64,000 nucleotides of DNA from an uncultured Victivallis sp. (GTDB taxonomy: Bacteria > Verrucomicrobiota > Lentisphaeria > Victivallales > Victivallaceae). Shown here piece by piece: positions 7,229 through 43,557 of this stretch. The position numbers and the translations under genes are program-made. Location of the stretch: positions 810 through 64,809 of the forward strand of contig CALXNS010000064.1 of assembly GCA_944389815.1 (NCBI GenBank), written 5' to 3'. Each line of letters opens with the position of its first letter. Position 1 is the first letter of the stretch. The notes under the pieces were generated by a model. It searched no databases, was not told the DNA's origin, and saw only the letters and a list, made by a program, of their open reading frames with translations.

Positions 7229-8926
7229 TTGACCGAAAATTACGGCAGTCTGTCGTTGAAAAACAAAAAATATTATGATATATTTGCCTATATTCTGCGG
7301 TATCAATTTCAATCCAGGTTCAAAAGCGGCATGAAGAATAAACTGTATGATTTTTACAAGGCGACGGAGTTGAAGATTGTAAATTTCGCCCACCGCTTCG
7401 GGAGTTTGCGACTTCGAACACAAAGTCTGTGGATTCTGCTTTTTCTATTATTCGTCATTTTGTGCAACCTCCAATTCATAGCCAAGGGGGGGGATGCGAT
7501 TCACAAGTGGTTTATGGTTCGGCTCTATCTGGAGCACGGCACCTTTTTCCCCATTCAACCGGATCACCATCTATTGCGCTGGGGACTCATGTGGCCGGTC
7601 ATCGGAGTGTGCAAATTGCTTGGCGCCTCCATTTACTGTTATTATTTATATCCCCTCTTCTGCTACTGTGCCGGCGGACTGTTGTTTTTCTGGCTTGGAC
7701 GGCAGATTCTCAGCCGCGAAACGGCTCCGTTTGCGGTATTGCTTTACGCGTTTTATCCCGTCATCATTCACGAAGGGACACAATTTCTGCCGCTGGTGCC
7801 GGCCACAATGTGGATTTTGATGACTCTTCTCTTCACTTTACGCTTTCTCGACGGCAAACAGAAGAATCCCTTATGGATGGTGGCGGCGGGAGCGGCACTG
7901 GTTTTCGCGTACGGCTGCAAGGAGACATCTTTTTTCTGGGCTCCGGGAATTTTTCTTTTTCTGGCATTTTCCCCTGCTGAAAAAGAGTGTTTGCACTGGA
8001 AAAAATTTCATGTCACCTGGGGAATGCTTCTCTTTTTTCTCACGTGCATCGGCGGAATGGGAATTGAAACTTTGATAATCAACCAGATTTACGACTGTAC
8101 TCTGGGGCGTTATGAACTCCTGCTCGGATCCCATCTGCTGGGGGATACCCAACAGGGAAATTACGCCACAATCTGGAGTTATCCCTTCAGTTTTCTCAGA
8201 CAATTCTCATGGCATGGCAAATATTATCAATTCCTGCCTCAGAACATTTCCATACTCATGGGATTGACCGGAGCTTTTTTTATTCTTAAATATCACCATG
8301 AAATCAGAAGGCGTTTTCTTGCCGTCGCCTTTCTCGGAGCGTACCTGTGTCACTGTTATGTCATTTTCAAGATTAATCCCATCAGTTATCCGGAACTGGT
8401 CATCCATCGTTATCTGATCGCCGTGCTCTGTGTCGGTTTCCTTCTGTTCTGCGCTTCGCTTCCCGACTTGAAAAAATGGTGTTGCGCAGGGCGTGCATGG
8501 CGCCGGATTCTCGTCGTTTCACTCGGCGGAATCTGGCTGATTACGGTGGCCATTTACAACATCAACGCCCGGCTGCAGGACGGCAATCTCTTTCAATTGG
8601 AGCAAATGCGCAGAACGATTCCGGCGGCCCTCAAAAACGGAGACGCCGTAGGAGTTGTTACAGAGCGTAAAAAAATCGCCCCCGACATAGATAATCGCGT
8701 CCTGCCCGATAAATGGGGGCTGCTCCATCTGCGCTGCTGGGGAGACACTCAAATGTTCTTTGAACTCCAGAAAAAACGCTGCACCTACACCCCATACGGC
8801 AAAAAGCAGGTCATCGTCTGGCTGAGTGCTCCCCGTGAAGGGAAACGCCGATTCGTTTTGGATGAATACTCCATCATCCGGGACCGGGATCTCCCTTCGC
8901 CTGACTTTGCGAACGGCTCTAAGTAA
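7229..8926 (+). CDS. Polytopic membrane glycosyltransferase, GT39/GT83 (ArnT/PMT)-like
   Basis: Many TM helices, with 'LLYAFYPVIIHEGTQF' and 'FAYGCKETSFFW' segments typical of ArnT/PMT-like proteins and a C-terminal soluble tail. The ORF starts at TTG 7229; the first ATG (7331, 'MKNKLYDF') is an alternative start. Visibly lower GC than its neighbours. Confidence 0.6.
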   Translation: MTENYGSLSLKNKKYYDIFAYILRYQFQSRFKSGMKNKLYDFYKATELKIVNFAHRFGSLRLRTQSLWILLFLLFVILCNLQFIAKGGDAIHKWFMVRLYLEHGTFFPIQPDHHLLRWGLMWPVIGVCKLLGASIYCYYLYPLFCYCAGGLLFFWLGRQILSRETAPFAVLLYAFYPVIIHEGTQFLPLVPATMWILMTLLFTLRFLDGKQKNPLWMVAAGAALVFAYGCKETSFFWAPGIFLFLAFSPAEKECLHWKKFHVTWGMLLFFLTCIGGMGIETLIINQIYDCTLGRYELLLGSHLLGDTQQGNYATIWSYPFSFLRQFSWHGKYYQFLPQNISILMGLTGAFFILKYHHEIRRRFLAVAFLGAYLCHCYVIFKINPISYPELVIHRYLIAVLCVGFLLFCASLPDLKKWCCAGRAWRRILVVSLGGIWLITVAIYNINARLQDGNLFQLEQMRRTIPAALKNGDAVGVVTERKKIAPDIDNRVLPDKWGLLHLRCWGDTQMFFELQKKRCTYTPYGKKQVIVWLSAPREGKRRFVLDEYSIIRDRDLPSPDFANGSK

Positions 8927-9285
8927 AAAATCTCATTTGCGGCAATTCGGAACTGACTGGTCTGGAGTATCATACCTCCGCCCCGAACCGGTCGTTTTAT
9001 TCCTGCCCGGATCAATAACGCATTGAGAATTCATCTGTATTCAAATCTGGTGTTCCCGCTCCTTTCATCAATTCCACGTCCGGCCTGCGCCTGCAGATGT
9101 CGTCCTCTCCGCATCAACCGCGAATTTCCGGGAATAATAGAACAAAATCTTCCGCATTTTCAATGAAAACAACCTCAAAAATCAGAAACATTGCAAAAAA
9201 GCAATCTTTTTTTCAAAAGGGACTGGACAACTGCGCCGAATCGATTATCTTAAATATAAAGGACACCGATTGCAACCCGAATTGA

Positions 9286-10905
9286 ATGAAGATGAACATC
9301 GACAGCAGCAAACTTGATCCGGTCACCCGGAAATTTCTCGAAAGCCATGAAAATGAATGCGCGGCGGTCGTCACCACGCCGGCGCAGCGCTGTTATTATC
9401 TGCTGCTGTGCATCGGGTTGCTGTTTTTATTGAAATACCGCTGGGATTATTTTGTTTTTCTCACTGCGGCATATTTCATGTTCTGGTACGGTGCGGCGGC
9501 GCTCTTCCGGGGGGGGGCGGCGGTGCTGTCGTTCTTCGGCTGCGGCGAGACGCGCATCTCCTCGCAGGAAACCGCCGGCAATGACGCTGAACTTCCGATC
9601 TACACCATTCTTCTGCCGCTCTATCACGAAGCGAATATCGCACCGAAGATCGTCCGCAACATCGGCAGACTCGATTATCCGCCGGAGAAACTCGATGTCA
9701 AGCTCCTGCTCGAAAGCGACGACGCGGAGACGCGCCAGGCTCTGGAACACGCCGGCCTGCCGTCCTTTTGCGACGTGATCGTCATTCCGGATGCGCCGCC
9801 CAAAACCAAGCCGCGCGCCTGCAATTTCGGACTCGAACGCGCCCGCGGCGAATTCTGCGTGATCTACGACGCCGAAGACGCTCCCGAACCGGATCAGCTC
9901 CGCAAAGCGGTCGCAGTCTTCCGCCGCGACCCGGAACGAAAAATTCTCTGCGCCCAGGCAAAACTCAATTATTACAACGCGCGCCAGAACCTCCTGACAC
10001 GCCTCTTCACCGTGGAATATTCCACCTACTTCGATTTGACGCTGAGCGGTTATCAGCTTTTCCGGCTGCCGCTGCCGCTCGGGGGCACCAGCAACCATTT
10101 CCGCACCGAACTTCTCCGTCAGATCGGTCCCTGGGATCCCTTCAACGTCACCGAAGACTGCGACCTCGGATTGCGGATTTATGAAAAGGGGTATCGCACG
10201 ACGCTCTTTAATTCCACCACCTTCGAGGAGGCGAACTGCGAACTGTGGAACTGGATGCGGCAACGTTCGCGCTGGGTCAAAGGTTTCATTCAGACCCACC
10301 TGGTTCATTACCGCAATCCCTTCCGGACGGTTGAAAAACTCGGCTGGTACGGCACGCTCGGCGGTTTTCTCGCCGTCGGCGGCAGCGCGCTGATGATGTT
10401 GACCAACATTGTGTTCTGGGGGTTGATCCTGCTTTACTTCGGATTGCTCATTCACGGCTTCTCCCACGGAGTCGGCTTCTGGGAACAGATTCACGGACCG
10501 CACCTCGACGGAGGAATCTATCAGGGGATTGCCGTCGGACCGTTTCATCTGCGTGCATGGCCGTTGATTTTCACCGGCCCGGGGGAAGATCCGTTTCTCT
10601 CCGTCTTTTCGGAGCTGTTTTTCGCGGGATCGATGATTCTCTTTCTGGCGAACTTTCTTTTTATCGGCATCGGCATTGCGGCGTGCATCAAGCGACGCAT
10701 GTTCGATCTGATTCCGGCGGCGCTGCTGATGCCGTTTTACTGGCTGCTGATTTCACTGGCGGCCTGGAAAGGCTTCTGCCAGATCTTCACCAGACCATTC
10801 TACTGGGAAAAAACCAAACACGGTTTGACCAACAATACCGACACCGACGTCGAGCATGCAACAGGGGGGACCATAACATGCGACAAACAAACCATTTCAC
10901 TTTAA
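9286..10905 (+). CDS. Processive family-2 glycosyltransferase (membrane-embedded polysaccharide synthase type)
   Basis: D,D,D,QxxRW signature: 'ESDD', 'YDAEDAP', 'VTEDCDLG' (TED) and 'RQRSRW'. N- and C-terminal TM helices flank the catalytic domain. Confidence 0.85.
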
Positions 10906-11582
10906 TCGAGCTTCTGGTGGTAATCGCGATCATCGCGATTCTTGCGGGCATGCTGCTTCCCGCGCTCAACCGCGCGAGGGAAAAGGCACAGGACACAACC
11001 TGCCTCAACCAGCTCAAACAACACGGTCTGGCGCTCGACATGTACCGCAACGATTATCGCGACCGGATGCCGCCGTGGCTTTCGACCCTCTATCCGAACT
11101 ACACAACCTCCGCACAACTCTACCATTGTCCGAAGGATCAGAATCCGCCGGACACCGCTCCGGAGGACTGGAAATCGCGCGGCTTGAACGACGACTCCTA
11201 CGCGGCCAGTTACGACCGGCAGGGCAACGTCGGAATCCGCGGAAACAATCCGAATACGGATGTGACGGCCAATCCCACTACGGCGGTCAACAAGATCAGT
11301 TATTTCTATGAATTCGCGGAGGCGCAATGCCAGTTCGGCACCGCGGAGGAACAGGCGACCATGAGCTGGAACGAGAAAAAAGCCAAAGATATGCGCGGCG
11401 GCACCTGTGACGTGGAAGGGCCGTTCAAGGATGTGCCGTACCGCAGTATCATGACGCTTTTTCCGACCGTACGCTGTTCGTGGCACATCAGCGCCGGAAC
11501 AGACAAACCCGTGCAGAACGTCTCTTATGCGGGCAACATTTTCTACAGCATGAGCATGTGGGAACGCGGTGCCTGGAAATAA
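10878..11582 (+). CDS. Prepilin-type N-terminal cleavage/methylation domain protein (pseudopilin-like paralog 1)
   Basis: '[37 protein letters not shown]'. ATG at 10878 lies inside the longer 10557 ORF, whose upstream part overlaps the GT2 gene in another frame. Confidence 0.85.
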
Positions 11583-12522
11583 GTTCACAGAAAAAAATCC
11601 GCACCTGACCTACCATCTCCGGCAACTGGTCGGGACGGCTTCGCGCATCGGGGTCATCCATCAAAGCTGGGAACGCGACATGGATGCCATTCCCCATCAG
11701 CACGATTTCGTGGAAATCGTGCTGATCTGCAGCGGCTGCGGCGTCAACCGGATCAACCGGATCGGTTATCCGGCCATGACCGGTGACGTTTACGTAATCC
11801 GGCCGGGTGAAGAGCATACGTTTCACACCGCCACGCATTTGAACCTTTTCAACATCATCTTCCGTCCGGCAGGGCTCTTCAGCCGCATGGAACGGACGGA
11901 ATGGGAGAAATCCCCCGAATACCGCACGCTGTTCGTCAACCCCGTTCAATACGGTCCGCTGCGGTTTACGCCGGAGCATTTCGAACCGCTTGAACGTCTG
12001 ACCGAAAGACTGGAAGCGGAACTGGCGTCGCCCGGTCCGGTTTCCACCCAGACGGCGAAAGCACTGTTGATTCTGATCCTCCGGGAAATCTGTTCGATGC
12101 AGCGGCATGCCTCCACCCGCCGCGCCGCCGACAACGACGCCCATGCGGGAAACACGGCCGATCGTCATCTCGCACGAATTCTTGATTTCGTGAACCGCAA
12201 CTTCACCCGGCCGCTTCCAGCAGAGGAAATCGCACATGAAGCCGGCATTTCCCCGGATTATCTCAGCGATTTCTTCCGCGCCAGAACCGGCACTCCGCTG
12301 GTGAAATACATCAACTCCCTGCGCATCGCCCATGCGGGTCATCTGCTGCGGAATCGTTCCGAGTGCAACGTTACGGAAATTGCCGCGCTCTGCGGGTTCG
12401 CCGACTCCGGATATTTCACCCGGCTCTTCCGGAAAAATACCGGACTTACACCGACCGATTTTCGGCGTTCCATTCAAATTGAAACCGAAAAAATCTGGAA
12501 AAAATCCCAAAAAAAACCGTAA
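11569..12522 (+). CDS. AraC-family transcriptional regulator (cupin sensor plus HTH)
   Basis: The C-terminus has a double HTH: '[42 protein letters not shown]...[33 protein letters not shown]'. GTG start, so the 5' end is uncertain. Confidence 0.85.
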
Positions 12523-12596
12523 TCATTACAGTTTTCCGCCCTGTCTCCTCCTATATTGAAAGAAGTAAAGCAACCTCCAATCAGAGGAAATTCAAA

Positions 12597-14045
12597 ATGG
12601 CGGAAACGACAACCCATCTCGCGCATTACCATGACCGGGTGCTCGGCTGCTGGACGGGCAAAACCATCGGCGGCACCCTCGGAGCGCCCTTCGAAGGGCA
12701 CGTCGGAGAACTTGCACTTGATTTTTACGCGAAGATTCCTGACGGCGAACCCGCACCGAACGACGACCTCGATCTACAGCTCATCTGGCTGGAAGCGGCC
12801 GAAACGCACGGCATCGATCGAATCACGCCGCGACTGCTCGCGGAATACTGGCTCGATTACGTGCTCGCCGGGTGGAATGAATACGGCGTATGCACCGCAA
12901 ATCTCCGCAACGGAATTTATCCGCCGCTCTCCGGATTCTGCGGCAACCGGAGATGGGGGTTCAGCAACGGCGCCTGGATTCGTTCTGAAATCTGGAGCTG
13001 CCTGTTTCCCGGGGATGTGCAGAATGCGACGCGCTGCGCATGGATGGACAGTTGTCTCGACCATTACGGGGAAGGAATTTACGCGGAGATCTTCACTGCC
13101 GCTCTTGAATCGGCGGCGTTCGTCGTCAACGATCCCCGCAAACTTGTGGAAATCGCACTGGCGATGATCCCCCGTGAAAGTCTGCTTGCGCAAAGCGTCC
13201 GCCGCGCCTGCGACGTTTTCGCCGCGGGCGGAACCCCGTCGGAAGCCCGTTCAGCCGTCCTCGAACGGAACACTGAACTTGGGGATTTCCAGTCGCCTGC
13301 CAATGTCGCCTTCGTCGTCATCGGTCTGCTCTGGGGCGCCGGAGAGTTCGGGAAAACCATCTGCACTGCGGCCAACTGCGGCGACGACACCGACTGCACT
13401 GCCGCGACGGCCGGCGCGATCATGGGCATTCTGCTGGGACGTTCCGGCATTCCGGAAAAATGGACGCGCCCGATCGGAGACAAAATCCGGACGGCAACCA
13501 TCAACCCCATGCACAACAACATCGCCATTCCCGCAACCCTCGACGAACTTGCATGCCGGGTGGAAAAACTTGCCCGCCGCCCCGACGGAACTCTGCTCAA
13601 GGTGCCGGACGCTCCGGTCAACATTCCGCCGTCGGATTTCATGCGTTTCGAATTGCCGTGGGGCGAACTTCTGGTTCGTTATCGGAGCGGCGCCGAGGCG
13701 CTCCCCGGCGAATCGCTGACGTTTGAACTTACCACCGCTTCGCTGGCGATCAGCACAATGGATTTGTGTTCGTTCCGGTGGCTGCTGCCGGCGGGCTGGC
13801 GCATTTCGCCCGGAGCATTCGGCATGATGCGCCGCTGTGGAAGCCGGGTCGAATTCACCGTGGAAGCGGGGGAATTCTCCGCCGAAACGGAGTTGCTGCA
13901 ACTGGAAGTGACGCTTGCCGGGCGGAAGGTGCCGGAAGTCATTCATCTGCCGATTCTGCTGCGCGGCAGTTTTGATTACAATACGCAGGTTCCGAACCTC
14001 CTCGAAGAACGACGCCAACTTGTCAAGCAATGGAGAACGGCATGA
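12597..14045 (+). CDS. ADP-ribosylglycohydrolase-family protein with a C-terminal extension of about 150 aa
   Basis: 'DRVLGCWTGKTIGGTLGAPFEG', 'DDLDLQ' and 'CGDDTDCTAATAGAIMG' are the hallmark metal-binding segments of the ARH/DraG fold. RBS 'agagga' upstream. Confidence 0.85.
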   Translation: MAETTTHLAHYHDRVLGCWTGKTIGGTLGAPFEGHVGELALDFYAKIPDGEPAPNDDLDLQLIWLEAAETHGIDRITPRLLAEYWLDYVLAGWNEYGVCTANLRNGIYPPLSGFCGNRRWGFSNGAWIRSEIWSCLFPGDVQNATRCAWMDSCLDHYGEGIYAEIFTAALESAAFVVNDPRKLVEIALAMIPRESLLAQSVRRACDVFAAGGTPSEARSAVLERNTELGDFQSPANVAFVVIGLLWGAGEFGKTICTAANCGDDTDCTAATAGAIMGILLGRSGIPEKWTRPIGDKIRTATINPMHNNIAIPATLDELACRVEKLARRPDGTLLKVPDAPVNIPPSDFMRFELPWGELLVRYRSGAEALPGESLTFELTTASLAISTMDLCSFRWLLPAGWRISPGAFGMMRRCGSRVEFTVEAGEFSAETELLQLEVTLAGRKVPEVIHLPILLRGSFDYNTQVPNLLEERRQLVKQWRTA

Positions 14046-16000
14046 AAAAAATATCCGCCACACCATTGCTATTGCTCCTTTTTCTGAGCACATCCGCCTT
14101 TGCCGCGACGGAAAAATACACCGCCGCCGAAGCGGCGCGCGGAGAAATCACGGCGGAGATCCTCGTTCCGCTGCTGCCGGAGACCCCCCGCGGCCTCGGC
14201 GCTCCGGCAGGCGATCGCCATTACTGGTTCGACACGCTGGGCAAATATTTCCGGAATCCCGAACCGATCTATGAACGCGCCAGACAGACGGCGGCCGACT
14301 TCACACCGGATTTTTCCGACGAATGCTGGCTGGATCGCAGGAATTTCGCCCGTTACGGCGGCGAAATCAGCCGAAGCGCCGAACTGCTCCAGCGCCTGAC
14401 CGCGGCGGAATGCCTCGAAAACAAAGGCAATTTCCTGCCGGAGATCGCCCGGCGGATCGATCAGTTGTGCTCCCTGAAAACCTGGGTGACGTTTCATCAT
14501 GACCGCGATGGTTACGCCTTTTCCGGCAAGGGGCGTTTCTGCGACCTGCTCGCCTCCGATCTGGGGCGCACGCTGGCTGAAATCGATTTTCTGTTCGGCG
14601 ACGGCCTGCCGGAATCCACCAGAAAAAACATCCGCAGTGCCGTCAACGCCTGGCTCTTCGAACCGTATCTCGGCTCCATGCGCGCAGGCAAACCTCTCAG
14701 CGGCATGTGGTGGATCGAAAGCGGCAACAACTGGAACGCGGTCTGCAACTACAACGTCGCCGCCGCCGCCGCGATCCTGATCGAATCCAGAGAACAGCGC
14801 GCGGAGCTTCTCGCATTTGCGCTCGAAAGTGTTCAGCGTTACCTGAACGCCTTCAGCGACGACGGTTATTGTTCGGAGGGGGTCTCCTACTGGAACTACG
14901 GCTTTTCGCATTATCTGTCGCTGGCGGAGCTTTTTTATTGCCAGACCGGCGGCACGGTCAATCTTTTCAGCGGGACAGCGAAACTCGACGCGATTTCCCG
15001 GTTCGGACTGCGCTGCGATATGAGTGAGAAACTTTATCCGGCCTTTGCGGATTCTCCAACCACGATCTATTTGAAATATCCGCTGACCGTGCTTCTGGAA
15101 CGCCGCGCCGGGCTGACCGCTTACGCCCGGTATTCCCGTCATCCGGCCGGCACGATCCCGACCTGGAACGCAGGAGAACTTCTGCTGGTCAAAACGGCTC
15201 TGGACATGCCGAAAACCGCCTCAAGCGACGGAGAAGCCTCGTCCAAAGAAAGCGCAGGGCAGCACCTTTTCCCCGATGCCGGAGTGGTCATCTCCCGCCC
15301 CGCCGCACCAAACGGCCTGTTTCTCGCATTCAAAGCCGGAACCAACGCCGAATTCCACAACCACAACGACATCGGAAGTTTCGTCGCCGGCATCGACAAT
15401 ACTCCGATTCTGACCGATCCGGGTTATCCGGAATACACCGCGGACTCCTTCACGCTCCGGCGCTACGAATCCGATGCGAACAACTCCTTCGGTCATCCGG
15501 TTCCGGTAGTGAATGGATATTTGCAGGGCTCCTGCGGCGAATTCGGGCCACCGGATGCGCCGCTCTATTACGGGACGATTCTCGAACACGAATTCACCGG
15601 AGATTCCACCCGGGCGCTGATCGATCTCAAACCGGCTTATCCGACCGAATGCGGCATAAAGACTCTCACGCGGGAATTCCTCCACGTCAGGCAAAATCAG
15701 GAACGTGTCGTCACGACCGACTGTTTCGAATTGGAAACGCCGGGGCGTTTCGGCGGCGCGCTGACCACCTACGCCGGGATCCGTGAACTCGGAGAAGGGG
15801 AATACGAATTCGCCACCGGCGGAAACACGGTTCTTCATGCTTCCATCCGGGCCGAAGGCGGCAAACTGCGTTTCAATCGACAATCACTGAAATCGCGTTT
15901 CATCCAGCACGACCAGCCGCCGGTCCGGCTGGGATTCGAATTTGCAGAACCAATCCAATCCGGCAGAATCATTGTGGAAATTCAACCGAAAGGAAACTGA
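14042..16000 (+). CDS. Secreted heparinase II/III-family (polysaccharide lyase-like) protein
   Basis: Signal peptide '[21 protein letters not shown]', 'NWNAVCN' and '[10 protein letters not shown]' motifs. ATG 14042 overlaps the upstream stop (ATGA). Confidence 0.75.
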
Positions 16001-16002
16001 AT

Positions 16003-16815
16003 ATGACGCACGCAGAAACAATCACCCGGCCCGTTTTCCGTTCCATTTCCGCTTCCGCAATCAAACCATTGCACTTCACGCTGATCGAACTCCTGATCGT
16101 AATTACGATCATCGCCATTCTTGCTTCAATGCTGCTTCCGGCGCTCAATCAGGCCAGGGAACGGGCACACGCCGCCGGCTGCATGAACAATCTGCGCCAG
16201 CTCGGAATGGCGGTCAACGCCTATCGTTCCGACAACGATGATTTCTTCTCCAACGCATGGGGCGGTTTCGAAAAACGCAATTATGAGAATGCGCCCCGTC
16301 ATCTCTCCGGTTATCTCGGCGGTCCGACCAGGGCGCAGATTGACGGCAGTGCCGAATTTCAGAACGACGATCTGATTCCGCAGCCCTTCTTCTGTCCCTC
16401 CGTCAAACCGGATCCGGCCTATTACCGATCGAACTACACCTACGCATTCGCATACAGTTATTACTCTGTGAGCAATGCGATGCGCCTCTCGCAGACGAAG
16501 TTCAACGACACGCACAATCAGCCGCAGCCGCGCAGCCGGGCGATCATCGCGGCGGACTCCCATTGGGCGATTGCCGACGGGGCATATCACGGCAACGGAC
16601 TGCGTCCGGCCGCGCAAACCTGGGCGGGCGCGATCTCCGTGCGTCACGGCAACCGCGGTAATCTGCTGCTGGTCGACGGATCGGTCCCGGGGGTGAATGC
16701 CGCCGAGTTGCGGGAATATTATATTCTCAACCGCCACAACGACGCTTCGCCGTTCCCGATTGCCCATCAGGTCAGCGAGTGCTATGACGCAAACGGCGCG
16801 TTGATGGCGCTTTAA
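16003..16815 (+). CDS. Prepilin-type N-terminal cleavage/methylation protein with an H-X9-DG C-terminal motif (pseudopilin-like paralog 2)
   Basis: '[32 protein letters not shown]' and '[14 protein letters not shown]' (H-X9-DG). Starts 3 nt after the heparinase-like stop. Confidence 0.9.
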
Positions 16816-16894
16816 ACGTCCTCACCCGGGTCTGAGTTCTTCAGGCAGATTCGATTTGTTCGGCACAATTGGAATCTCTTGGCAGATCGCCGTC

Positions 16895-16923
16895 GCACCG
16901 GATTTTTCCGGTGCGTTTTTTTT
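16895..16923 (+). terminator. Rho-independent terminator
   Basis: 8-bp stem 'gcaccgga'/'tccggtgc', a 4-nt loop, then g and T8. Confidence 0.7.
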
Positions 16924-16967
16924 CGTGATGCCGATCAGAAAAAAATTCCTTTTTTCCTCCGCCGCTC

Positions 16968-16996
16968 TTGACTTTCCATAGCAAATGCGTCATAAT
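16968..16996 (+). promoter_or_regulatory. Sigma70-like promoter candidate for the LacI-family gene
   Basis: TTGACT-N17-CATAAT, about 50 nt upstream of ATG 17047. Confidence 0.45.
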
Positions 16997-17046
16997 ATAA
17001 AGCGACGATATACAATTAACGTAATATTTATACATCTGCAAAAAAA

Positions 17047-18129
17047 ATGTCGAACATCAATATCAACACCATCGCCAAGCACGCCCGAGTGTCGACGACG
17101 ACGGTGTCCAACTACATCAACGGGACGGAGAAAATACCGATCAGTCCGGAAACGCGCCGCCGGATCAGCAGCGTGATGCGGGAACTTGATTACCGTCCGC
17201 ATCCGGGCGGCAGTCTGATTCGCCGGAGCCGTCAGGAGCGGAAGCGCATCGGATTCATTTTCGGGGAGAACTGCATGTTGCCGGTGCCGGAAATCTTTCA
17301 TGTTCAACTGATTCAGGATCTGATCCGGGAATTGAGTTACGCATTTCTGCGGCACGGGTTCGATCTTGAAGTGCTCAATGTCGCCGACGAAAATTCGCGC
17401 AGCGACTGGAACAACGCGTTTCTCGATATCGATTTCGTGCTCAATTACGGACAGTTCAACAATCTGATGTACGACACGCTCTCGCGGCGCAACATCCCGG
17501 TGGTGGAAATTTTTTCGCTTGACCGCTTCCGGATTGTCGGTGACGCGGATCCGGCCCCGGCGGCGGAACTTCATACTATTTTCTGGCGGAATGATCGCCA
17601 GATCGCCGGAATCTTCGATCGTTTCTATCAGGAGGGCGCCCGGAATTTCCTCTATATTTCGTCCTGGAACGTGAAATCGAACCGCCCGGATTTCTACGGT
17701 TATGACGCAGAATGCAAAATGGCCGGTTTTCTAGCGGCGCTTCAGGCGCACTCCGACGCCCGCGGCTCCGTATTGACCCCGCCCCGCCCGGAAAATTCCG
17801 ATATGGGGTACGAATTCAAACTCGCCCGCGACCTTCTCTCCGAACGCATCGAAGAGCTCATGAATGTCGATGCCATCATCGCTCACAACGACATCGTCGC
17901 CTATGGCGCGGCCTCCGTGCTGCAGGAGCATCCGGAACTCAAAAAACGCGCCATCAAGCTTTCCGGCGAAGGTGATTTTTCGTTTCTCCGCCACTGGTAC
18001 CCGGCAATCACAACCTCGAGCGTTGATTTACAGCAACTTTCCGCAAAACTGATTGAATTGGTCGAAAATATCATCAATAAAAAATGTTTCAAAGCACAGA
18101 AAATTGAAATTCCAATCGTCATTCGTTAA
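17047..18129 (+). CDS. LacI-family transcriptional regulator
   Basis: N-terminal HTH '[46 protein letters not shown]' followed by a periplasmic-binding-protein-like body. Confidence 0.9.
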
Positions 18130-18145
18130 CAGGAAGGAGAGGGAA

Positions 18146-18796
18146 ATGAAGCGTTTATTCACACTGATCGAATTGCTCGTCGTTATTGCGATCATCGCGA
18201 TTCTCGCGTCAATGCTGCTTCCGGCGCTCAATCAGGCCCGGGAACGGGCCAAAGGGGTCGCCTGCAAATCGAACCTCAAGCAGATCGGCACCCAAATTCA
18301 GATGTATGCCGACGACTTCAAGGATAACCTTCCGGAAACCGGATCGTCGACCTACTCCTGGGAGCAGCGGCTGCTCGATTTGAATTACATTCCCTACAGC
18401 GGTCAGGGAGTCAAGCTGGTTCTCTGTCCCGGCGACGTCATTAAACGCACCTCGACCGAACACGCCCCGAAGAGTTACCGCTGCAACGGCTATCTCTGGA
18501 CCAATGCGGACGCAAGCTGCGTCAACGGCGCCGTCACCCGGGTGCGCAATCAGCCCAGCCAGCTTGTCTCGCTGGTCTGCCAGCCGCATGAGGTGATGAC
18601 CTGTTACAGCGGCAGCGCGGCATTTCAATACGGCTTTGCAATTCCGACGTCAAGCAGTGTCGAACAATGGACGCACGGGGATTTCGGCACGTTCCTTTTC
18701 CTTGGCGGCAACGTAGGCAATATCATGTTTCGGACGACGAGCGACACCACGCTCTTCAATCGCCACTGGCGCGCCAACAAGGCGGAAAACGAATAA
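18146..18796 (+). CDS. Prepilin-type N-terminal cleavage/methylation protein (pseudopilin-like paralog 3; degenerate H-X9-GG)
   Basis: '[35 protein letters not shown]' after RBS 'aggaaggaga'. The C-terminus '[12 protein letters not shown]' resembles H-X9-DG with D changed to G. Confidence 0.9.
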
Positions 18797-18811
18797 GATC
18801 CCCTTCAGAAA

Positions 18812-21800
18812 ATGGTTCGCATCATGATGAAAACGCTTTTTTACGCCGTTCTTTCCGTTGCGGTTGTAACCGCCGGAGCCGCCATGGTTCCGGACGGTTT
18901 TTATTATGAAAAAAACGATCACCTGCAAACGCGGAGTGAATCGCTGTTCTTCACGTATAAATTCTCTCCGGGAGACGAAGACGCCCTCCGGCGCGGGGTC
19001 AAATTCGAATTGAGCAATCTCGACAACGAAATTGTCCGTTCCGGCGAAAGCCGGGAATTCGAACTCCGGGACGGTCTGGCGATCTACCGGCTGCTGCCGC
19101 CGGCGGAGATGGCGGAATTGCCGAGCGCATGGTACAATCTGGCGATCGCGCCTGCGGGAGACGAAACGAACAATATGTTCGATCTCAAATTTCAACTCGA
19201 TTCCACGCCGTACCGCTCCCGTGTCGTCTATCTGCTCGACAACGCGACTCCGGAAGGGTACGCCCGCTGGCTCAACCGGGAATTCCCCGGCGAAATCGAA
19301 CCTCTCCGCGATTTTCCGGAAGACGGTTCCGCGCCGGCGGCGGTCATCATTTCCAGTTATCGTGAAGTGGACGCGCCGACGGTCGAGAAACTCCGGAACT
19401 ATGTGGAAAACGGAGGAACGCTGCTCTTTTTCGGAGTGAATCATCCATCGCTTGATTCACTCAACCCTCTTGCGCAGAACCGTGACGATCTCTACAGTTA
19501 CACTCCGTCAATGGCGGTGCAGAATGCCGAACTTCCGGAACTTGCCGATTTCGCCGTCTACCCGGTCAACGCCACCGCAGCTCCGGAAGCGGAAATTCTG
19601 GCGACCGCCGATGACGGAAAAATTCTCGCCGCCGTCAAACCGGTCGGTTCCGGCAGAAGTTACGCCTTCGCCGGCGCACTCAAGCCCAATGCCGGATATC
19701 GCGCCATGCTCGCGAAAGCACTGCAATTGAAATCACACCCCCTTCCCTCGACCGCGCCGGTCGCGGGAGCCGACGGTTTCACCGAAGGCATTTCCCGCAA
19801 CAACATCGGCCGGTTCGGATTCCTCAACACCGACCGGACCAACGATCTCTCGATCCGTCCGGAAAACATCTTCCGGCTCTGGGATCTGGAACAGGATACC
19901 TTCGCAATCAGCTTCACCGACTCCGACGAACCCGGCGAAATCGCCTGCGTCGAGGCGAATTATCTGCAGAAAACTCTTCGCGGCAAAGGCGGACGCTTCG
20001 GTGAGGAGACCATCTTCTCCTACGGGCTCGGCACACCCGGAATCTTGTTTGAAAACCCGATGGCGGAATCCTTCCGGTTCGAATCGCCGATGATCGGCCA
20101 TATCGCGTATCCGACGGAAAACGGAATCGTCGTCAACGACCTTGCAAGAGAACGTCCCGATCTGACGAAACTTTCACAGAACTGGTTCCTCGTCTGGAAC
20201 TCCACTTCGAAATATGACGCCTGGCCGCTGCTGGTGACGCTCAACCGCAAAGTTCATTCCGTTGAAAATTCCGCGCCCGGGAAACTCAAACTCGCCTTCG
20301 CCGAACCGGGTCTTGCGATTTCAGTCATGCCGCTTGCCGGAGCACGCCATTTCACGCCGGACGAAGTTGCCGCCTGGAATCCAACGCTGCCGGAAACCAT
20401 CGCCGTCGCCGCCGAACACTGGGCCCGCGCCCTTTCGGCCCGCACGACCGGTTGCATGGAAAGCTATCGCATCAATCCTGACAAAACAGTTACGATCCGC
20501 AATCAATTCACGCTCCGGGAGCTCCCAAACGAATGGAACATCTCCGCCGAACCGCGCGCCTATCTGCCGCCATTGCTGCCGATTTACGCGAAAACCGGAT
20601 TTGCCCGGTTGCCCGACAATCTGGAAGATCTTTCTTTCGCCACGCTGCATGGTCCGCTCGCCTGGGTGCCCGGCGACACGGTCGAGTACACACTCTCCAT
20701 CCCCGATCCGGAATACACCATGCCGGTCACGCCGACTGATCCACGCCTCGATTGTCCGGCGAACAAAACGCTCTTCAACCGGATCATCGATCATCTTGAC
20801 GAAGCCGGTCTCACCTACATTCCGGCGCGCTTCGCGATCGTTGAACCGCAGCCGGGACGAATTTATCCGGAACGGGATCTTGCCGACGTGGTCAAATGGC
20901 CCTTCAGCACTGATGCGCCGAGCTGGAAATACATCGACATTCATCTGAGCTGGGGCGGCGTCACCGGAAATTTGATGTTCAAACCCTATCTTGACGCCGT
21001 TCCCGGTTACGATGAAGTCAAAGCCCGGCTGGAAACGAAGATCCGCCGCAACATCAAACGCGACATCGAATATTTCCAATATAAAACCTTCCTGCTCTAT
21101 CGCAATGAACCCTTCAGCAACCAGCCTTATCTGATGGCGTTCATCTCGCCGGTACGGTTCAATGACGGCTATCGCACGTTCCACGACATGAACGAGACCA
21201 CCGGTATCATCATGCAGACGCTTGCGCTTTATGACAACATCTATCATGATCGCGATTTCCTCGAATCCAACCGGGAATATTTCGACCTTTTCATGAGTTA
21301 CACAAAACTCTTCAACGACTGGGCCTGGATGAGTTCGATCGCAGTGGAGTGGGGCATGGGCAACAATATCGACATGCTCAATGCCGAACTGCCGGCCTGG
21401 ACCGGACGTTACCGGATCGATCGCACTCTCGGACGCGATGCGGAGGCGGATTTCGCACTCTACATGGCGGCGAAGGCGGGAGCTTCGGCCGGGGCGCGGC
21501 TCTTTTTCGGCGACTTCTACAATTCGCTGAACTTCCCGATCCCGCCGCAGCTCGCTCCGCAGATCCATGAGATGAAGGACAGCGGTCAGACGAGCATGAC
21601 GCGCAACAATTATCTGCCGTTCCAGCTTGCTCAGGGATACGGCGAAGGCTGGCCGTCGCTGTGGCCGTCGGCGATGAACAAGGGGTTGGTCATGCACGCC
21701 TACGACGGCAAGGATTTCTACAGCACCAGCAAGGGGGTTCCCATCGAACTGGTCAACTTCTACCGCAGCAGTCCTGAGATGTGTGAAGTGCTCGGCGTTT

Positions 21801-22522
21801 ACGAAAACGCGTTCCGGCAGTTCGCCTTCGACAATGATCTGCCCTACCTTTATTCGCGCATCGCCGGCGACGTCTGCCTCAATCCGGTCGATCGCGGGGA
21901 GCTGGAAAAACGCCTCAACCGCACATGGCGTTTTGGCGGCATGACCGCGAAGAGCCTCGGCATGGGCGTCGCCGACTGGGAAACCACCGCAATGAGCATT
22001 CTTCTGGAAGAATTGCGCAGGAGCGCCGATCAGGATGAACTTCGTTTCACCGTCCCGGTCGAACCGGAAAAATGGGAGGCGGTCTGGCCGAAATCCGGTC
22101 CGGCGCCGGAATGCAAACCGGTCGACACGCCGGAGGGACGCGCCATGCATTTCCGTTTCCAGGCGCCCACGCCGGAGAACGTGCCGGTCGCCTTCGCCCG
22201 GTTCGACAAAAAATCCGTCGCCGACAAAAAATGCGCCGCGCTCTCTTTCCGGATTAAATCCCCCACCCCGGGGGGCACGCTCGACATCGCGCTTCCGGAG
22301 ACCGACTGGACGAAGAATCCGGTCGTTTCGCTGCCGATCGATGAATCGATGCGCGACGGGAAAGTCGTCCGGCTCGAATTCGAACGCGATTTCAAACTTG
22401 GCTCTTTCGGCATGAAACCGGAGAATCTCCGCGGCGAACTCTTCTTCTACAATGGAATTGTCCCGGGGAAGACGCGCGGCGAATTAAATTTCGAATTGAC
22501 CGATATCCGCTTCGAACCTTGA
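18812..22522 (+). CDS. Large secreted protein of unrecognised family, probably carbohydrate-active
   Basis: 1236-aa ORF with signal peptide 'MMKTLFYAVLSVAVVTAGAA'. It has an N-terminal flavodoxin/GATase-like segment ('AAVIISSYREVDAPTVEKLRNYVENGGTLLFFG'), a helical middle and a C-terminal beta-sandwich-like tail. The antisense 609-aa ORF is spurious. Confidence 0.75.
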   Translation: MVRIMMKTLFYAVLSVAVVTAGAAMVPDGFYYEKNDHLQTRSESLFFTYKFSPGDEDALRRGVKFELSNLDNEIVRSGESREFELRDGLAIYRLLPPAEMAELPSAWYNLAIAPAGDETNNMFDLKFQLDSTPYRSRVVYLLDNATPEGYARWLNREFPGEIEPLRDFPEDGSAPAAVIISSYREVDAPTVEKLRNYVENGGTLLFFGVNHPSLDSLNPLAQNRDDLYSYTPSMAVQNAELPELADFAVYPVNATAAPEAEILATADDGKILAAVKPVGSGRSYAFAGALKPNAGYRAMLAKALQLKSHPLPSTAPVAGADGFTEGISRNNIGRFGFLNTDRTNDLSIRPENIFRLWDLEQDTFAISFTDSDEPGEIACVEANYLQKTLRGKGGRFGEETIFSYGLGTPGILFENPMAESFRFESPMIGHIAYPTENGIVVNDLARERPDLTKLSQNWFLVWNSTSKYDAWPLLVTLNRKVHSVENSAPGKLKLAFAEPGLAISVMPLAGARHFTPDEVAAWNPTLPETIAVAAEHWARALSARTTGCMESYRINPDKTVTIRNQFTLRELPNEWNISAEPRAYLPPLLPIYAKTGFARLPDNLEDLSFATLHGPLAWVPGDTVEYTLSIPDPEYTMPVTPTDPRLDCPANKTLFNRIIDHLDEAGLTYIPARFAIVEPQPGRIYPERDLADVVKWPFSTDAPSWKYIDIHLSWGGVTGNLMFKPYLDAVPGYDEVKARLETKIRRNIKRDIEYFQYKTFLLYRNEPFSNQPYLMAFISPVRFNDGYRTFHDMNETTGIIMQTLALYDNIYHDRDFLESNREYFDLFMSYTKLFNDWAWMSSIAVEWGMGNNIDMLNAELPAWTGRYRIDRTLGRDAEADFALYMAAKAGASAGARLFFGDFYNSLNFPIPPQLAPQIHEMKDSGQTSMTRNNYLPFQLAQGYGEGWPSLWPSAMNKGLVMHAYDGKDFYSTSKGVPIELVNFYRSSPEMCEVLGVYENAFRQFAFDNDLPYLYSRIAGDVCLNPVDRGELEKRLNRTWRFGGMTAKSLGMGVADWETTAMSILLEELRRSADQDELRFTVPVEPEKWEAVWPKSGPAPECKPVDTPEGRAMHFRFQAPTPENVPVAFARFDKKSVADKKCAALSFRIKSPTPGGTLDIALPETDWTKNPVVSLPIDESMRDGKVVRLEFERDFKLGSFGMKPENLRGELFFYNGIVPGKTRGELNFELTDIRFEP

Positions 22523-25409: not shown

Positions 25410-28226
25410 TCATGCATTGCCACCGTCCGCGTCGTCCTCCTCAAGATCATCCGGCGGCTTCAACAACGTAACCTTTTCGCCGAGGCGGAATTCAGTGTTG
25501 CCGAGCTGCGCCCGGGTCATTTCCGGCAGAATCTTCACCGGCACATTCGAATCGAGCATCACCTCCAGCCCGCCGTCCGGCAATTTCTTCCACTGCACCT
25601 TCAGCCGCCCGCGCGCCATCGGCAGCGTCGCCTCCGCCCAGTCGATCAAATTAAAGGCCGGGTTGAAATAGATCACCGAATGTCCCGCCTCGGCAATCCG
25701 CACGCCGACAACTTCGCGCAACAGGAAAATGTTCGGCGAAACACAACTGCCATCGGAGAATTTGGTTGGCGCCGGTTCCGGATGATCCGGCGAAATCCGC
25801 CACGCATCGCAATCATCGCAGATCCGCCGGGCCCAGTAATCCCGGAAATACCGGAACGCCCAATCCCGCTGCCCGATCGCAAACATCATCTCTATGAAGA
25901 GAAAATGGAAATACGGATGCTCCGACTCCTCGCTCTTGTCGAACGGCGGATCGTAATTGAAGAATGCATAGAAGAACCGCTCGAACGATTCCAGCGGAAA
26001 CACCCCGCCGAACATCGCGCAGAAGTTGGCAAACAAATTGTGGTCCGGTTTCCGCTTCGCCTGGAACCCCCACCGCCCGAAAAGCTGTGCCTCCTCGTCG
26101 AAATTCAGCCGCATCAACTGGCCGGCCACACGCTGCGCCAGCGACACGCAGCGCGCCACGCTGCCGGGCTGATTGACTTGCCGATAAATTTCCGCCGCAG
26201 AGAGCAGGAACCGGCAGAAAAGCGCATTCAGATAGGTCGGCACCTCATCCTCCCCGAATTCCCCGTGACTCAAACGGCTGTGCAGGCCGAAACGCGTCTC
26301 CACATCGACCAGCAAACCGGTCTCCTCGTCCAGCATCGCCTCAAAATATTCCCGGGTCAGATCGAGGCTCGGAACCGTCCGCTCCAGTTCCACCGGGTTC
26401 GCGCAGAACCGGTAGTTGTAATAAATCCATACCGGGAAGAAAAACAAATGGTGTATCTGCGACGCATGCCGCCGCCCGAAGGTCAGCGCCGGAATGTCCC
26501 CGTTCTCCAGCTGCGCATCGATGAACTGACGCAGCCGTGCCGTCGCGTAATCGAAATCCCCGAACACCGCGGCCATGTTCACAGCGTCGATGTAGGCGTC
26601 GAGCATGTAACAATCAAAATCGCTCCGGGATTCCGCCAATGGAACGAATGCCGCCGAACGGCGCAACGTCTGGCGACCGATCTCCCAGAACCGGTTCAGC
26701 AGTTCGTCCGAGCAGCGAAACGACGCCTCGTGCCGAACCGGACGATACAACTCCTCCAGCCACACGCCCGTCACCCGAACCGGGCCGGACGAACTCCTCA
26801 CGGCAATCATCACATAAAAACAATCCGACGGCGTGAAACTCAGAAACATGTTCTGATCCTTCCGGCAGACAATCGTACAGGCGCTGCGCACTCCGCCCGC
26901 GGGAACCACCAGCCCGCGCTCCGAACGGCGCAAGCCGGTGATGATGTCCACGACGTCTCCCTCGTTCGCCGTAAGTTGAACCCGGACGAAACCGCTGCGC
27001 AATTTATCCAGACGATAGATCAGATATTCCCGCTCCGCCAACGGCTCCGGCACGCCGATTTCCGCCGGAGTTTTCCCGGCAGGTGAGAAAACGCAATGTT
27101 TCAAATAACTGAACGGATCCGTCAACTTCGACAAATCCGGAAGATACCGCTTCACCTGCAACCGTTCAAACCGCAGCGACGGCGTCGCTTCCGCCAGCGA
27201 CAATTTCAACGGACCGACCGTGTTCCAGCCCGATGCGGCGTCGTCCATCATATCCTGATACACCTGGAACGGACGACCGAACGCCTCGTCCGGCAGCACC
27301 AGGAAGAATCCCATCGAGTGACATCCCGGATTTTGAATCAGCAGCAAACGGTTCCAGCCGGCGCGCAACGGCAGCACGACCTCCTCGCCGCTGCTGTATT
27401 CCCCCGTAGCAACCAGACGGTTGTTGCAGAAGAACTTGAACGGATCGTCGGTGTATGGACGAACCGCAATCTCGCACTCTTCCTCGCAGAAAATATAGGT
27501 GTCCGCCGCGTAGGTGAAACCCAATGTGTCACAGCTGTTGTCGAACACAACCTGCGTCCAGTTGGGCTGCGTCGTCACAAAACCGCGCTCCGTCAGGAAA
27601 ATCGGCGGTTGTTCCTCATTGATCACCGGCGGCGTCAGCGGATGCAGTTCCAGTTTTGCGCCGAGTTCGCCGACCGGAACCGTGTAGTCCGGCCGCTGCC
27701 AGTTCGCATCCGGAAGAAACATCGGATTCGACCATTTCGGCGGGCAGTCCTTCGCCCGGAAGAGCTGCGTCATGCCCTGTTCCGGCGAAATCCGAGCCCG
27801 GTGCCCGCCGAAACAACTCCCATCATAAATGAACCACGATTCATCCGAACAGATCACCTGCTGGTGTTCGGTCTCCATCTGACACCACAGTCCCGGCGTG
27901 CGACGGTCGTCGCCCCCGGGAAACACGTTGTAATAAAGCAATACCGCGATCACATTGATCCCGGATTCCAGATAATAGGTCACCTCATGCTGGTCGATGT
28001 AGCTGATCCCGCAGCTCTGGTGCGCTCGCGGACCGAATCCGACGAAACGACCGTTGATGAAAAGTTGATACGCACAGTTCGCGCTGATCCAGAGATTGGT
28101 CTCCAGCCCGACGCTCGAGCAGACAAACTCCTTTCGCATCAGAAGAAAACTGTCCGGATGATTCAGAAGGGACTGCTTCCAAATCCACACACCATTGATC
28201 TTCCTGGGCAATGTTACGTTCGCCAT
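25410..28226 (-). CDS. Alpha-L-rhamnosidase (GH78)-like multidomain protein, cytoplasmic
   Basis: The N-terminal domain 'LWISANCAYQLFINGRFVGFGP' resembles the bacterial rhamnosidase N-domain. The long C-terminal helical region is consistent with a six-hairpin fold. ATG 28226 has RBS 'ggggag'; ATG 28256 is an alternative start. Confidence 0.6.
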   Translation of the reverse strand: MANVTLPRKINGVWIWKQSLLNHPDSFLLMRKEFVCSSVGLETNLWISANCAYQLFINGRFVGFGPRAHQSCGISYIDQHEVTYYLESGINVIAVLLYYNVFPGGDDRRTPGLWCQMETEHQQVICSDESWFIYDGSCFGGHRARISPEQGMTQLFRAKDCPPKWSNPMFLPDANWQRPDYTVPVGELGAKLELHPLTPPVINEEQPPIFLTERGFVTTQPNWTQVVFDNSCDTLGFTYAADTYIFCEEECEIAVRPYTDDPFKFFCNNRLVATGEYSSGEEVVLPLRAGWNRLLLIQNPGCHSMGFFLVLPDEAFGRPFQVYQDMMDDAASGWNTVGPLKLSLAEATPSLRFERLQVKRYLPDLSKLTDPFSYLKHCVFSPAGKTPAEIGVPEPLAEREYLIYRLDKLRSGFVRVQLTANEGDVVDIITGLRRSERGLVVPAGGVRSACTIVCRKDQNMFLSFTPSDCFYVMIAVRSSSGPVRVTGVWLEELYRPVRHEASFRCSDELLNRFWEIGRQTLRRSAAFVPLAESRSDFDCYMLDAYIDAVNMAAVFGDFDYATARLRQFIDAQLENGDIPALTFGRRHASQIHHLFFFPVWIYYNYRFCANPVELERTVPSLDLTREYFEAMLDEETGLLVDVETRFGLHSRLSHGEFGEDEVPTYLNALFCRFLLSAAEIYRQVNQPGSVARCVSLAQRVAGQLMRLNFDEEAQLFGRWGFQAKRKPDHNLFANFCAMFGGVFPLESFERFFYAFFNYDPPFDKSEESEHPYFHFLFIEMMFAIGQRDWAFRYFRDYWARRICDDCDAWRISPDHPEPAPTKFSDGSCVSPNIFLLREVVGVRIAEAGHSVIYFNPAFNLIDWAEATLPMARGRLKVQWKKLPDGGLEVMLDSNVPVKILPEMTRAQLGNTEFRLGEKVTLLKPPDDLEEDDADGGNA

Positions 28227-28446
28227 GACCAATCTCCCCGATCGTTGAAATCGCATCTCATGCGAATTTGGATATTATGCAGATTCGCCCGCGCCACGGA
28301 GCGGCACACTGCAACCTCGACGCGGAAGGATTCCGTTATAACTATGGCCCATGAAATCTACTTTGTCAACCATTGCGTAAACTTTTTGCCGATTTTTCCG
28401 CACTTTTTTCTCTGGTGCCGCTTCAGATACGGATATTTTTCCGAAA

Positions 28447-43379: not shown

Positions 43380-43495
43380 GCGCGGCTGAAAGGTCGGGTG
43401 ATGAACAGCGCCGGAATCGTTCCGTCACGGGTTGATTCGGGCGCCTCTTTTCCAAGCGTCCCTGTATCGAAGTCGAACATTTTCAGTTCCGGTCG

Positions 43496-43523
43496 TTGCA
43501 AGCCGTCGATACGGTGCTATAGT
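43496..43523 (+). promoter_or_regulatory. Sigma70-like promoter candidate for the GH35 gene
   Basis: TTGCAA-N16-TATAGT, 35 nt upstream of ATG 43558. Confidence 0.4.
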
Positions 43524-43557
43524 ATTTCTCGTACCCCCCAGAACAGGAGCAACAGTC

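Follow-up and report, generated by a model that had tools for sequence, protein, structure and literature searches.

Three pilin-like genes, called P1, P2 and P3 in what follows, lie within a single 12-kb carbohydrate-related stretch of a 64,000-nucleotide piece of DNA (the window) from an uncultured Victivallis sp. (contig CALXNS010000064.1), and each of them sits against the gene of a different predicted partner protein. We found that the adjacency of such pilin-like genes to regulators and secreted carbohydrate enzymes exceeds chance, and that this arrangement, linked to regulators and carbohydrate-active enzymes (CAZymes) and specific to each locus, is real, general in Lentisphaerota and kept pair by pair. 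As to function, we tentatively read P1–P3 as diverged members of the DUF1559/H-X9-DG family, which is specific to the Planctomycetes–Verrucomicrobia–Chlamydiae (PVC) superphylum, and each of them as a plausible partner-specific minor pseudopilin that handles a glycan. The other 40 kb of the window are mostly occupied by housekeeping genes.

A six-frame motif scan located pilin N-termini at positions 10896, 16075 and 18158 and no others in the window, and the type-IV-pilin N-terminus [26 protein letters not shown] is present in exactly three open reading frames (ORFs). In P1, P2 and P3 alike, FTLIELL(V/I)VI(A/T)IIAILA(G/S)MLLPALN(R/Q)ARE(K/R)A comes after a short leader, and each has the basic leader, Phe+1, Glu+5 and about 20 hydrophobic residues by which pilin N-termini are recognised. 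All three scored above the cut-off of TIGR02532 (prepilin-type N-terminal domain; 20.4-22.4 bits versus 16.3). With PF07963, P1 was marginally over the cut-off of 21.2 (21.5), and P2 (19.3) and P3 (21.0) were under it. The first-pass annotation of this DNA had placed three prepilin-leader genes here, and both the ORFs and the gaps around them were confirmed: P1 shares 28 nucleotides (nt) with the GT2 glycosyltransferase gene and 14 nt with the AraC gene, the heparinase-like gene stops 2 nt ahead of P2, and P3 lies 16 nt from the end of the LacI gene and 15 nt before the start of the gene for a 1236-amino-acid (aa) protein. The same genes were called by an external gene caller on a Logan contig, and they recur in several gut metagenome assemblies; in DNA runs, the organism was detected in chicken, pig and bird guts.

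An H-X9-DG motif had been ascribed to all three proteins. It is exact in P2 alone ([12 protein letters not shown]), with H-X9-GG in P3 and no comparable spacing in P1. TIGR04294 gave 14.1 bits with P2 (cut-off 19) and no match with P1 or P3; a P3-like orthologue from another genome (L090) scored 19.0. Pfam DUF1559 (PF07596) gave 21.1-22.4 bits with P1–P3, below the gathering threshold of 23.3, and these partial matches covered only profile positions 2-41 of 268, which correspond to the stretch just past the helix. Many homologues of P1–P3 do bear PF07596, and head landmarks of the DUF1559 family (C..NLKQ.G and CP(S/G/K)) are present in P1–P3, together with RH....N.L..DG in P2. The mutual likeness of the three proteins is found chiefly within their first 60-110 residues. 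Their helix-coding DNA is 85% identical with many synonymous differences, because of which gene conversion was rejected as the cause of the identical N-termini; judged from these substitutions, selection at the protein level is a better explanation for the near-identical helices than recent gene conversion. The conserved cysteines of the heads suggest an extracytoplasmic, oxidising location.

The family had also been described as hugely expanded in PVC lineages, and this proved correct: it is a very large one with its centre in the PVC superphylum. Full-length P2 as query brought up over 7,800 clusters, which are for the most part of Victivallaceae and Lentisphaeria origin and have names such as 'DUF1559 domain-containing', 'prepilin-type processing-associated H-X9-DG protein' and 'type II secretion system protein'. 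The nearest named relative was a protein from a metagenome-assembled genome of Victivallaceae (56% identity), and a scan in which each species was represented by a single genome found relatives in Lentisphaerota, Verrucomicrobiota (including Akkermansia), Kiritimatiellia, Planctomycetota and Omnitrophota. DUF1559 is the largest paralog group of Planctopirus limnophila, with 68 copies, two of them essential (PMC10632474), and Rhodopirellula baltica has 74 copies (PMC2754498). When the head of P2 (residues 61-270) was searched by itself against 1.84 billion proteins, 76 representative clusters came up. The contrast between more than 7,800 clusters for the full-length protein and 76 for the head indicates that the helix is frozen and that the heads diverge very fast. 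The P1 subfamily comprises about 80 full-length clusters, in Lentisphaeria. An AlphaFold2 model of P2 (predicted local distance difference test, pLDDT, 88.3; predicted template-modelling score, pTM, 0.83) showed a helix of 50 residues (27-77) followed by an alpha/beta head, that is, the long alpha1 helix and globular alpha/beta head of a pilin. Sequence and profile matches in the PDB were limited to the N-terminal helix (PilA, 6xxd, 1e-17; GspG, 3e-8).

The adjacency to regulators and secreted CAZymes that had been proposed from this one stretch was checked statistically in 80 independent PVC loci from other genomes, containing 105 pilin-like genes (108 with the three of the window), and was found to be enriched. 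The pilin-like genes were mostly dispersed singletons, with 11 tandem pairs. Among the 91 genes lying directly upstream, Pfam assigned 12 to Peripla_BP_3, 8 to GntR, 5 to the AraC-type helix-turn-helix (HTH) and 2 to LacI, and in a control set of 148 genes at least 4 positions away each of these regulator families had at most 1 member (Fisher p ~2e-6 for upstream regulators versus control). Because the controls were drawn from the same loci, the test is conservative. Furthermore, our own hidden Markov models (HMMs) for LacI and AraC missed GntR-PBP regulators that were seen by Pfam, and HMM-based regulator counts are therefore lower bounds. A regulator was found at position -1 for 14/38 pilin-like genes of Lentisphaerota versus 1/65 in the other PVC loci, and within positions -1 to -3 for 19/38 versus 1/67.

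On the other side of the pilin-like genes, the 77 directly downstream genes were heterogeneous, with no Pfam family above 2 members. A co-directional gene for a secreted protein of at least 600 aa nevertheless occupied position +1 in 12/34 cases in Lentisphaerota versus 13/231 in the background (odds ratio 9, p 5e-6); the corresponding figure for the other PVC loci was 5/53. Eight of the 10 downstream proteins examined had carbohydrate-type Pfam domains (CAZyme or carbohydrate-binding module, CBM), two of them only below the cut-off, and the types encountered were heparinase-like, GH78, GH123-like, DUF4838 with GH67N and CBM9, pectate-lyase-like, CBM4/9 and F5/8-C.

Further evidence was obtained by following the partners paralog by paralog. 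Orthologues of the 1236-aa protein in three other assemblies (51, 45 and 40% identity) all came with a LacI gene and a P3 orthologue at their side; the matching P3 orthologues shared 64-70, 48 and 35% identity with P3 over their full length, and the likeness of P3 to the other two proteins of the window, P1 and P2, was confined to the N-terminal part. In the P3 module, gene order is flexible and membership is not. In one of the loci (L089, 3389-4818) the P3 orthologue is tandemly duplicated (66% identical), and the order is two pilin-like genes, LacI and the enzyme. The 56% identical orthologue of P2, in the Victivallaceae genome GCA_028691615.1, belongs to the same operon of AraC, ADP-ribosylglycohydrolase (ARH), heparinase-like and P2 genes; in this orthologous operon (L092), AraC is in the same position and the ARH gene is kept, and a 35% identical relative of P2 comes after a homologous lyase gene in L009. 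We also noticed that this placing of the ARH gene (12597-14045 in the window), with AraC on one side and the lyase on the other, is common to two Victivallaceae genomes. The overlap of the GT2 gene with P1 is kept in GCA_031549345.1. A 52% identical P1 orthologue overlaps the end of a GT2 gene in precisely the manner seen in the window, and the overlap is the same for a 62% identical one, located at a contig end. Conservation does not extend to AraC in the loci of P1 orthologues, and a 44% identical P1 relative has no GT2 gene. By the criterion of orthology, each paralog is thus locus-specific, orthologues of the partner enzyme carrying orthologues of the same pilin-like gene, which bears out the proposal of one dedicated paralog per locus.

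The partners themselves are of different kinds. The heparinase-like protein next to P2 matched heparinase (8r75, 5e-28) and the polysaccharide lyase family 35 (PL35) chondroitinase 9o3q in the PDB. The 1236-aa protein next to P3 has no Pfam domain above cut-off and 13 homologous clusters, for which Lentisphaeria is the only taxon named. Its AlphaFold2 model (pLDDT 77, pTM 0.77) has a predicted fold made of a beta-sandwich, an (alpha/alpha) barrel and a C-terminal beta-sandwich, and in Foldseek it matched GH81 endo-beta-1,3-glucanases (E 3e-10, TM-score normalised to the target ~0.55, ~10% identity). The protein is a candidate for a new glycoside hydrolase family. The model also shows an extra N-terminal alpha/beta domain resembling the GH42 trimerisation or STM3548-type domain. 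The GT2 protein next to P1 has five transmembrane (TM) segments, one N-terminal and four C-terminal of the catalytic domain, and is processive-synthase-like.

P1 being tied to this five-TM membrane GT2, it would be coupled to polysaccharide synthesis or glycosylation and not to degradation. As far as can be read from its predicted partner, P1 is biosynthetic rather than catabolic, and is the exception among the three. The earlier assignment of all three genes to polysaccharide utilisation loci (PULs) therefore does not extend to P1, which is coupled to a GT2 synthase. AraC with the heparinase-like lyase, and LacI with the protein of GH81-like fold, form co-directional groups of the sort that a broad definition of CAZyme clusters includes. 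A PMT_2 (GT-C) gene, the five-TM GT2 gene and the overlapping P1 gene follow each other at 7229-11582. By analogy with the cyanobacterial hps locus, this segment could encode a pseudopilin together with the exopolysaccharide synthase that it partners; alternatively, it could be a pilin-glycosylating cassette, with GT2 making a lipid-linked sugar and GT-C acting as the transferase.

The features of this part of the window are collected in Table 1. A strong terminator-like hairpin and a promoter-like site part it into two units, (GT2-P1-)AraC-ARH-lyase-P2 and LacI-P3-1236-aa protein. No convincing palindrome that might be a LacI operator was found between the promoter-like site and the LacI gene.

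Table 1. Genes and putative signals around P1, P2 and P3 (positions in the window)
Feature	Position	Strand	Remarks
GT-C glycosyltransferase (PMT_2/ArnT-like), multi-pass membrane protein	7229..8926	+	PF13231 3e-11; six hydrophobic segments; upstream of GT2
GT2 glycosyltransferase, partner of P1	9286..10905	+	Pfam Glyco_trans_2_3 5e-25; weak matches to CelA/PgaC-type NCBIfam models
P1, pilin-like	10878..11582	+	234 aa; leader MRQTNH, then FTLIELL; no H-X9-DG
AraC-family regulator	11569..12522	+	AraC_binding and HTH_18; RhaR/RhaS-like
ADP-ribosylglycohydrolase-family protein (ARH)	12597..14045	+	PF03747 9e-39; no signal peptide
Secreted heparinase II/III-like protein of polysaccharide lyase type, partner of P2	14030..16000	+	Hepar_II_III_C 1.4e-5; signal peptide
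P2, pilin-like	16003..16815	+	270 aa; 24-aa leader; exact H-X9-DG; conserved Cys60/Cys131
Intrinsic-terminator-like hairpin	16894..16925	+	9-bp stem, 7 GC, plus T-run; ends the AraC...P2 unit
Sigma-70-like promoter ahead of LacI	16968..16996	+	TTGACT-17-CATAAT; consensus match only
LacI-family regulator	17047..18129	+	Pfam LacI and Peripla_BP_3
P3, pilin-like	18146..18796	+	216 aa; leader MKRL; six Cys; H-X9-GG
Secreted 1236-aa protein, partner of P3	18812..22522	+	signal peptide; GH81-like predicted fold

The mechanism that we propose for the glycan-handling pseudopilins is the following. A one-component regulator that responds to sugar (LacI, GntR-PBP or AraC) would turn on a short operon in which a single pilin-like gene is combined with a single carbohydrate-active partner. 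The pilin-like protein would reach the inner membrane by means of its class-III signal and helix, which are nearly invariant between paralogs, and this common helix would allow any paralog to dock in one shared type-IV-filament machine, similar to a type II secretion system (T2SS) or type IV pilus (T4P), so that the paralogs would be interchangeable. The fast-evolving, cysteine-rich head would then deal with the glycan cut by the partner, a lyase in the case of P2 and a GH81-like hydrolase in that of P3; the head of P1 would deal with the glycan made by the GT2 synthase. Processing, incorporation into a filament, contact with a glycan and control by the neighbouring regulator are the steps that we infer here. 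An indirect hint at the level of expression comes from cultured deep-sea Lentisphaerae, in which laminarin raises the expression of 'secretion system-related' genes, left unspecified in the main text (PMC11361711).

Several observations weigh against this mechanism. The residue at -1, before Phe+1, is H in P1, H in P2 and L in P3 and therefore never Gly, and Gly occupies this position in only 3/97 Lentisphaeria relatives; Phe+1 and Glu+5 are invariant among the 97. With Gly -1 nearly absent in Lentisphaeria, canonical cleavage by prepilin peptidase is doubtful, and these sequences would imply either a prepilin peptidase of relaxed specificity or no cleavage in this group. Over all loci scanned, which come mostly from other PVC bacteria, G or A is found at -1 in 67/108 pilin-like genes; the position is taken by H, K, R, S and other residues in Lentisphaeria members, and mostly by G or A in those of Verrucomicrobiota and Planctomycetota. 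No filament-assembly genes (ATPase, platform protein, secretin, peptidase) are present in the window, and the genes scanned from 7 to 24 kb include no SusD-like gene and no transporter, whether SusC-like TonB-dependent, ATP-binding cassette (ABC) or other. A screen for glycan-binding folds, as had been suggested for the heads, was negative for P2, whose model gave nothing below E = 1 with Foldseek against the PDB and resembled no solved lectin, CBM or solute-binding protein (SBP). The loci used for the enrichment test were picked by similarity to P2, with our own ORF calling and signal-peptide test, both crude, and the arrangement, strong in Lentisphaerota, was not seen in the sampled Verrucomicrobiota and Planctomycetota loci. 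None of the RNA runs contains the region. Lastly, two CAZyme genes of the window, those for a GH35 beta-galactosidase (43432-45312) and a GH78 rhamnosidase (56336-57955), lie amid housekeeping genes with no adjoining pilin-like gene or regulator; not all CAZymes of this genome have a pilin-like partner.

The first alternative, rather unlikely in our view though well short of negligible, is that these proteins are cargo-specific adaptors for secretion or anchoring, the head binding the neighbouring enzyme and not a glycan. The enzyme would be loaded on a T2SS pseudopilus for export, or tethered to the cell envelope, a situation paralleled by the chaperone or adaptor genes found beside effectors in other secretion systems. 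This would agree with the one-to-one, tight (2-15 nt) and conserved pairing with a single large signal-peptide protein, and with the finding that the identity of the pilin-like orthologues follows that of the enzyme orthologues. The diversity of the enzyme folds (lyase-like, GH81-like, GH78, GH123-like, pectate-lyase-like) also makes a dedicated adaptor per cargo plausible, and it is the one-to-one, co-evolving pairing that keeps the adaptor or anchor model alive. However, the conserved partner of P1 is a five-TM inner-membrane GT2 synthase, which is no secreted cargo, and P2 comes after its enzyme but P3 before its own. Because the partner of P1 is an integral-membrane synthase, a head that handles glycan is favoured over one that recognises an enzyme.

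It is unlikely, in the second place, that we are dealing with membrane-anchored periplasmic partners and no filament, the pilin-type helix serving as an uncleaved or unusually cleaved signal-anchor and the head as a periplasmic subunit that binds or guides glycan, like the bindosome proteins of Sulfolobus or BcsB beside BcsA. The general lack of Gly -1 in Lentisphaeria is what keeps this model alive, and the missing assembly genes nearby and the translational coupling of P1 to a membrane synthase point in the same direction. So do the Pfam family name SBP_bac_10, the description of the family as a solute-binding one (PMC2754498), and the precedent of class III signal peptides on sugar-binding proteins (PMC3047682). 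Yet the conservation of 30 near-invariant residues, including Phe+1 and Glu+5, over hundreds of paralogs and several phyla would be superfluous for a plain anchor; moreover, adjacent ABC transporter genes were not found in the stretch scanned and no periplasmic-binding-protein fold was detectable in the head.

That P1–P3 are ordinary structural pseudopilins of a T2SS or T4P, lying by coincidence in carbohydrate-rich neighbourhoods of a saccharolytic genome, is very improbable and largely refuted by the enrichment, which puts the adjacency to regulators and secreted CAZymes far above the same-locus background, and by the conservation of the pairs across species. GspG, ComGC and GspH are indeed the top NCBIfam models for P1–P3, NCBI calls many relatives 'type II secretion system protein', and in a few related loci T2SS F and secretin genes adjoin pilin-like genes; but P1–P3 missed the cut-offs of all Gsp equivalogs (GspG 34-39 bits versus 88.85, GspH ~26 versus 80), their matches to the GspG model are confined to the helix, the proteins (216-270 aa) are longer than this 134-position model, and the genes are dispersed singletons, not gspG-K operons, with no gsp genes adjacent to P1–P3. 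The probability that is left goes to some explanation other than these four models.

Two further regions of the window were noted. The 948-aa ORF at 25410-28256 on the minus strand has no Pfam match on record; with phmmer it matched a GH78 protein of the L028 locus (3e-9) and the GH78 rhamnosidase of the window (4.5e-5), and from these similarities it is probably a divergent GH78-like enzyme. Between 58000 and 64000 the GC content falls from ~0.58 to 0.47-0.51, and this block, which may be a foreign island, contains eight small ORFs (174-266 aa), several with hydrophobic N-termini. These eight ORFs gave no match in Pfam or PHROG and showed no mutual similarity.

We found no literature tying DUF1559/H-X9-DG proteins or Lentisphaerota pseudopilins to CAZyme loci, and pilins are unmentioned in the PVC polysaccharide literature that we examined. 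The family itself is known; for the module of regulator, pilin-like gene and CAZyme, and for the co-inheritance of the pairs, there appears to be no earlier description in the literature that can be searched. In both guts and oceans, complex and sulfated glycans are degraded to a large extent by PVC bacteria, which, to our knowledge, have no SusC/SusD machinery. The module offers a testable function for the very large DUF1559/H-X9-DG family, which is the largest paralog family in the studied Planctomycetota genomes and is also very large in Lentisphaerota, and its conservation makes the capture and import of polymers by PVC bacteria experimentally addressable on defined pairs. The module is, in addition, a practical genomic marker for unannotated carbohydrate-active enzymes, such as the 1236-aa family with the GH81-like fold.

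Compared with known systems, P1–P3 share the N-terminal helix, the overall size and the head landmarks of the DUF1559/H-X9-DG proteins of Planctomycetota, Lentisphaerota and Verrucomicrobiota. They differ in falling under both curated cut-offs (DUF1559 and TIGR04294), and the Lentisphaeria members in very rarely having Gly at -1. With the T2SS pseudopilins GspG-K they have the class-III signal and helix in common, and the contact of minor pseudopilins with tip or cargo is the role that we borrowed as a model; unlike GspG-K, they are encoded outside gsp operons, their heads are unrelated to that of solved GspG, and their copy number is far above that of a T2SS. The type-IV-like pilus MUL2 of Akkermansia is needed for the acquisition of mucin and fucoidan (Davey 2023, via PMC12418764, PMC13174399), and is similar in that a PVC bacterium acquires complex glycans by a type-IV-pilus-like system. 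It differs in being one conserved four-gene locus (amuc_1099-1102, PilM) with an archaeal-like pilin, and not a set of paralogs distributed one per enzyme under LacI/AraC regulators. The Sulfolobus bindosome resembles the favoured pseudopilin model through its carbohydrate-handling proteins with a pilin-type signal and their dependence on a pilus-like assembly (PMC3047682); these are, however, ABC solute-binding proteins encoded with their transporters, whereas P1–P3 have no adjacent ABC transporter and the P2 head has no SBP fold.

The closest analogue of the GT2/P1 pair is the hps locus of cyanobacteria, in which pseudopilin genes stand beside glycosyltransferases: the pseudopilins HpsB-D and HpsH are encoded with the glycosyltransferases HpsE-G, I and K and serve polysaccharide secretion (PMC12475490, PMC6495340). 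This locus differs in its several pseudopilins, its reliance on T4P/PilQ and the absence of a link to catabolic enzymes, and the sole match to HpsC was a negligible one, given by a P3-like orthologue from L090 (E 0.56). A precedent for glycan binding by minor pilins is provided by the type 4 pili of Streptococcus sanguinis (PMC9934059), which are encoded by one pil operon of a Gram-positive organism and are not dispersed in catabolic operons. An arrangement of one paralog per enzyme under LacI/AraC regulators is shown neither by MUL2 and the S. sanguinis pilins nor by the bindosome or hps.

The parallel with the SusD-like proteins of Bacteroidota PULs, drawn when the stretch was first annotated, is a loose one. 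It stands insofar as there is one variable, locus-specific accessory per glycan locus, co-regulated with the enzymes. It breaks down insofar as SusD is a tetratricopeptide-repeat-like lipoprotein obligately paired with the TonB-dependent transporter SusC, whereas the pairing here is with a single enzyme and no SusC or other transporter was seen among the genes scanned. A more far-reaching idea, which we consider doubtful, is that one retractile type-IV-filament machine in Lentisphaerota, and perhaps in other PVC bacteria devoid of SusC/SusD, carries swappable, glycan-specific tip pilins that are co-induced with the enzymes and pull polysaccharide to the periplasm, a 'glycan-fishing' pilus that may be analogous to the uptake of DNA by competence pili. 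If true, such a pilus would be the PVC counterpart of Sus and would account for the hundreds of DUF1559/H-X9-DG paralogs per genome.

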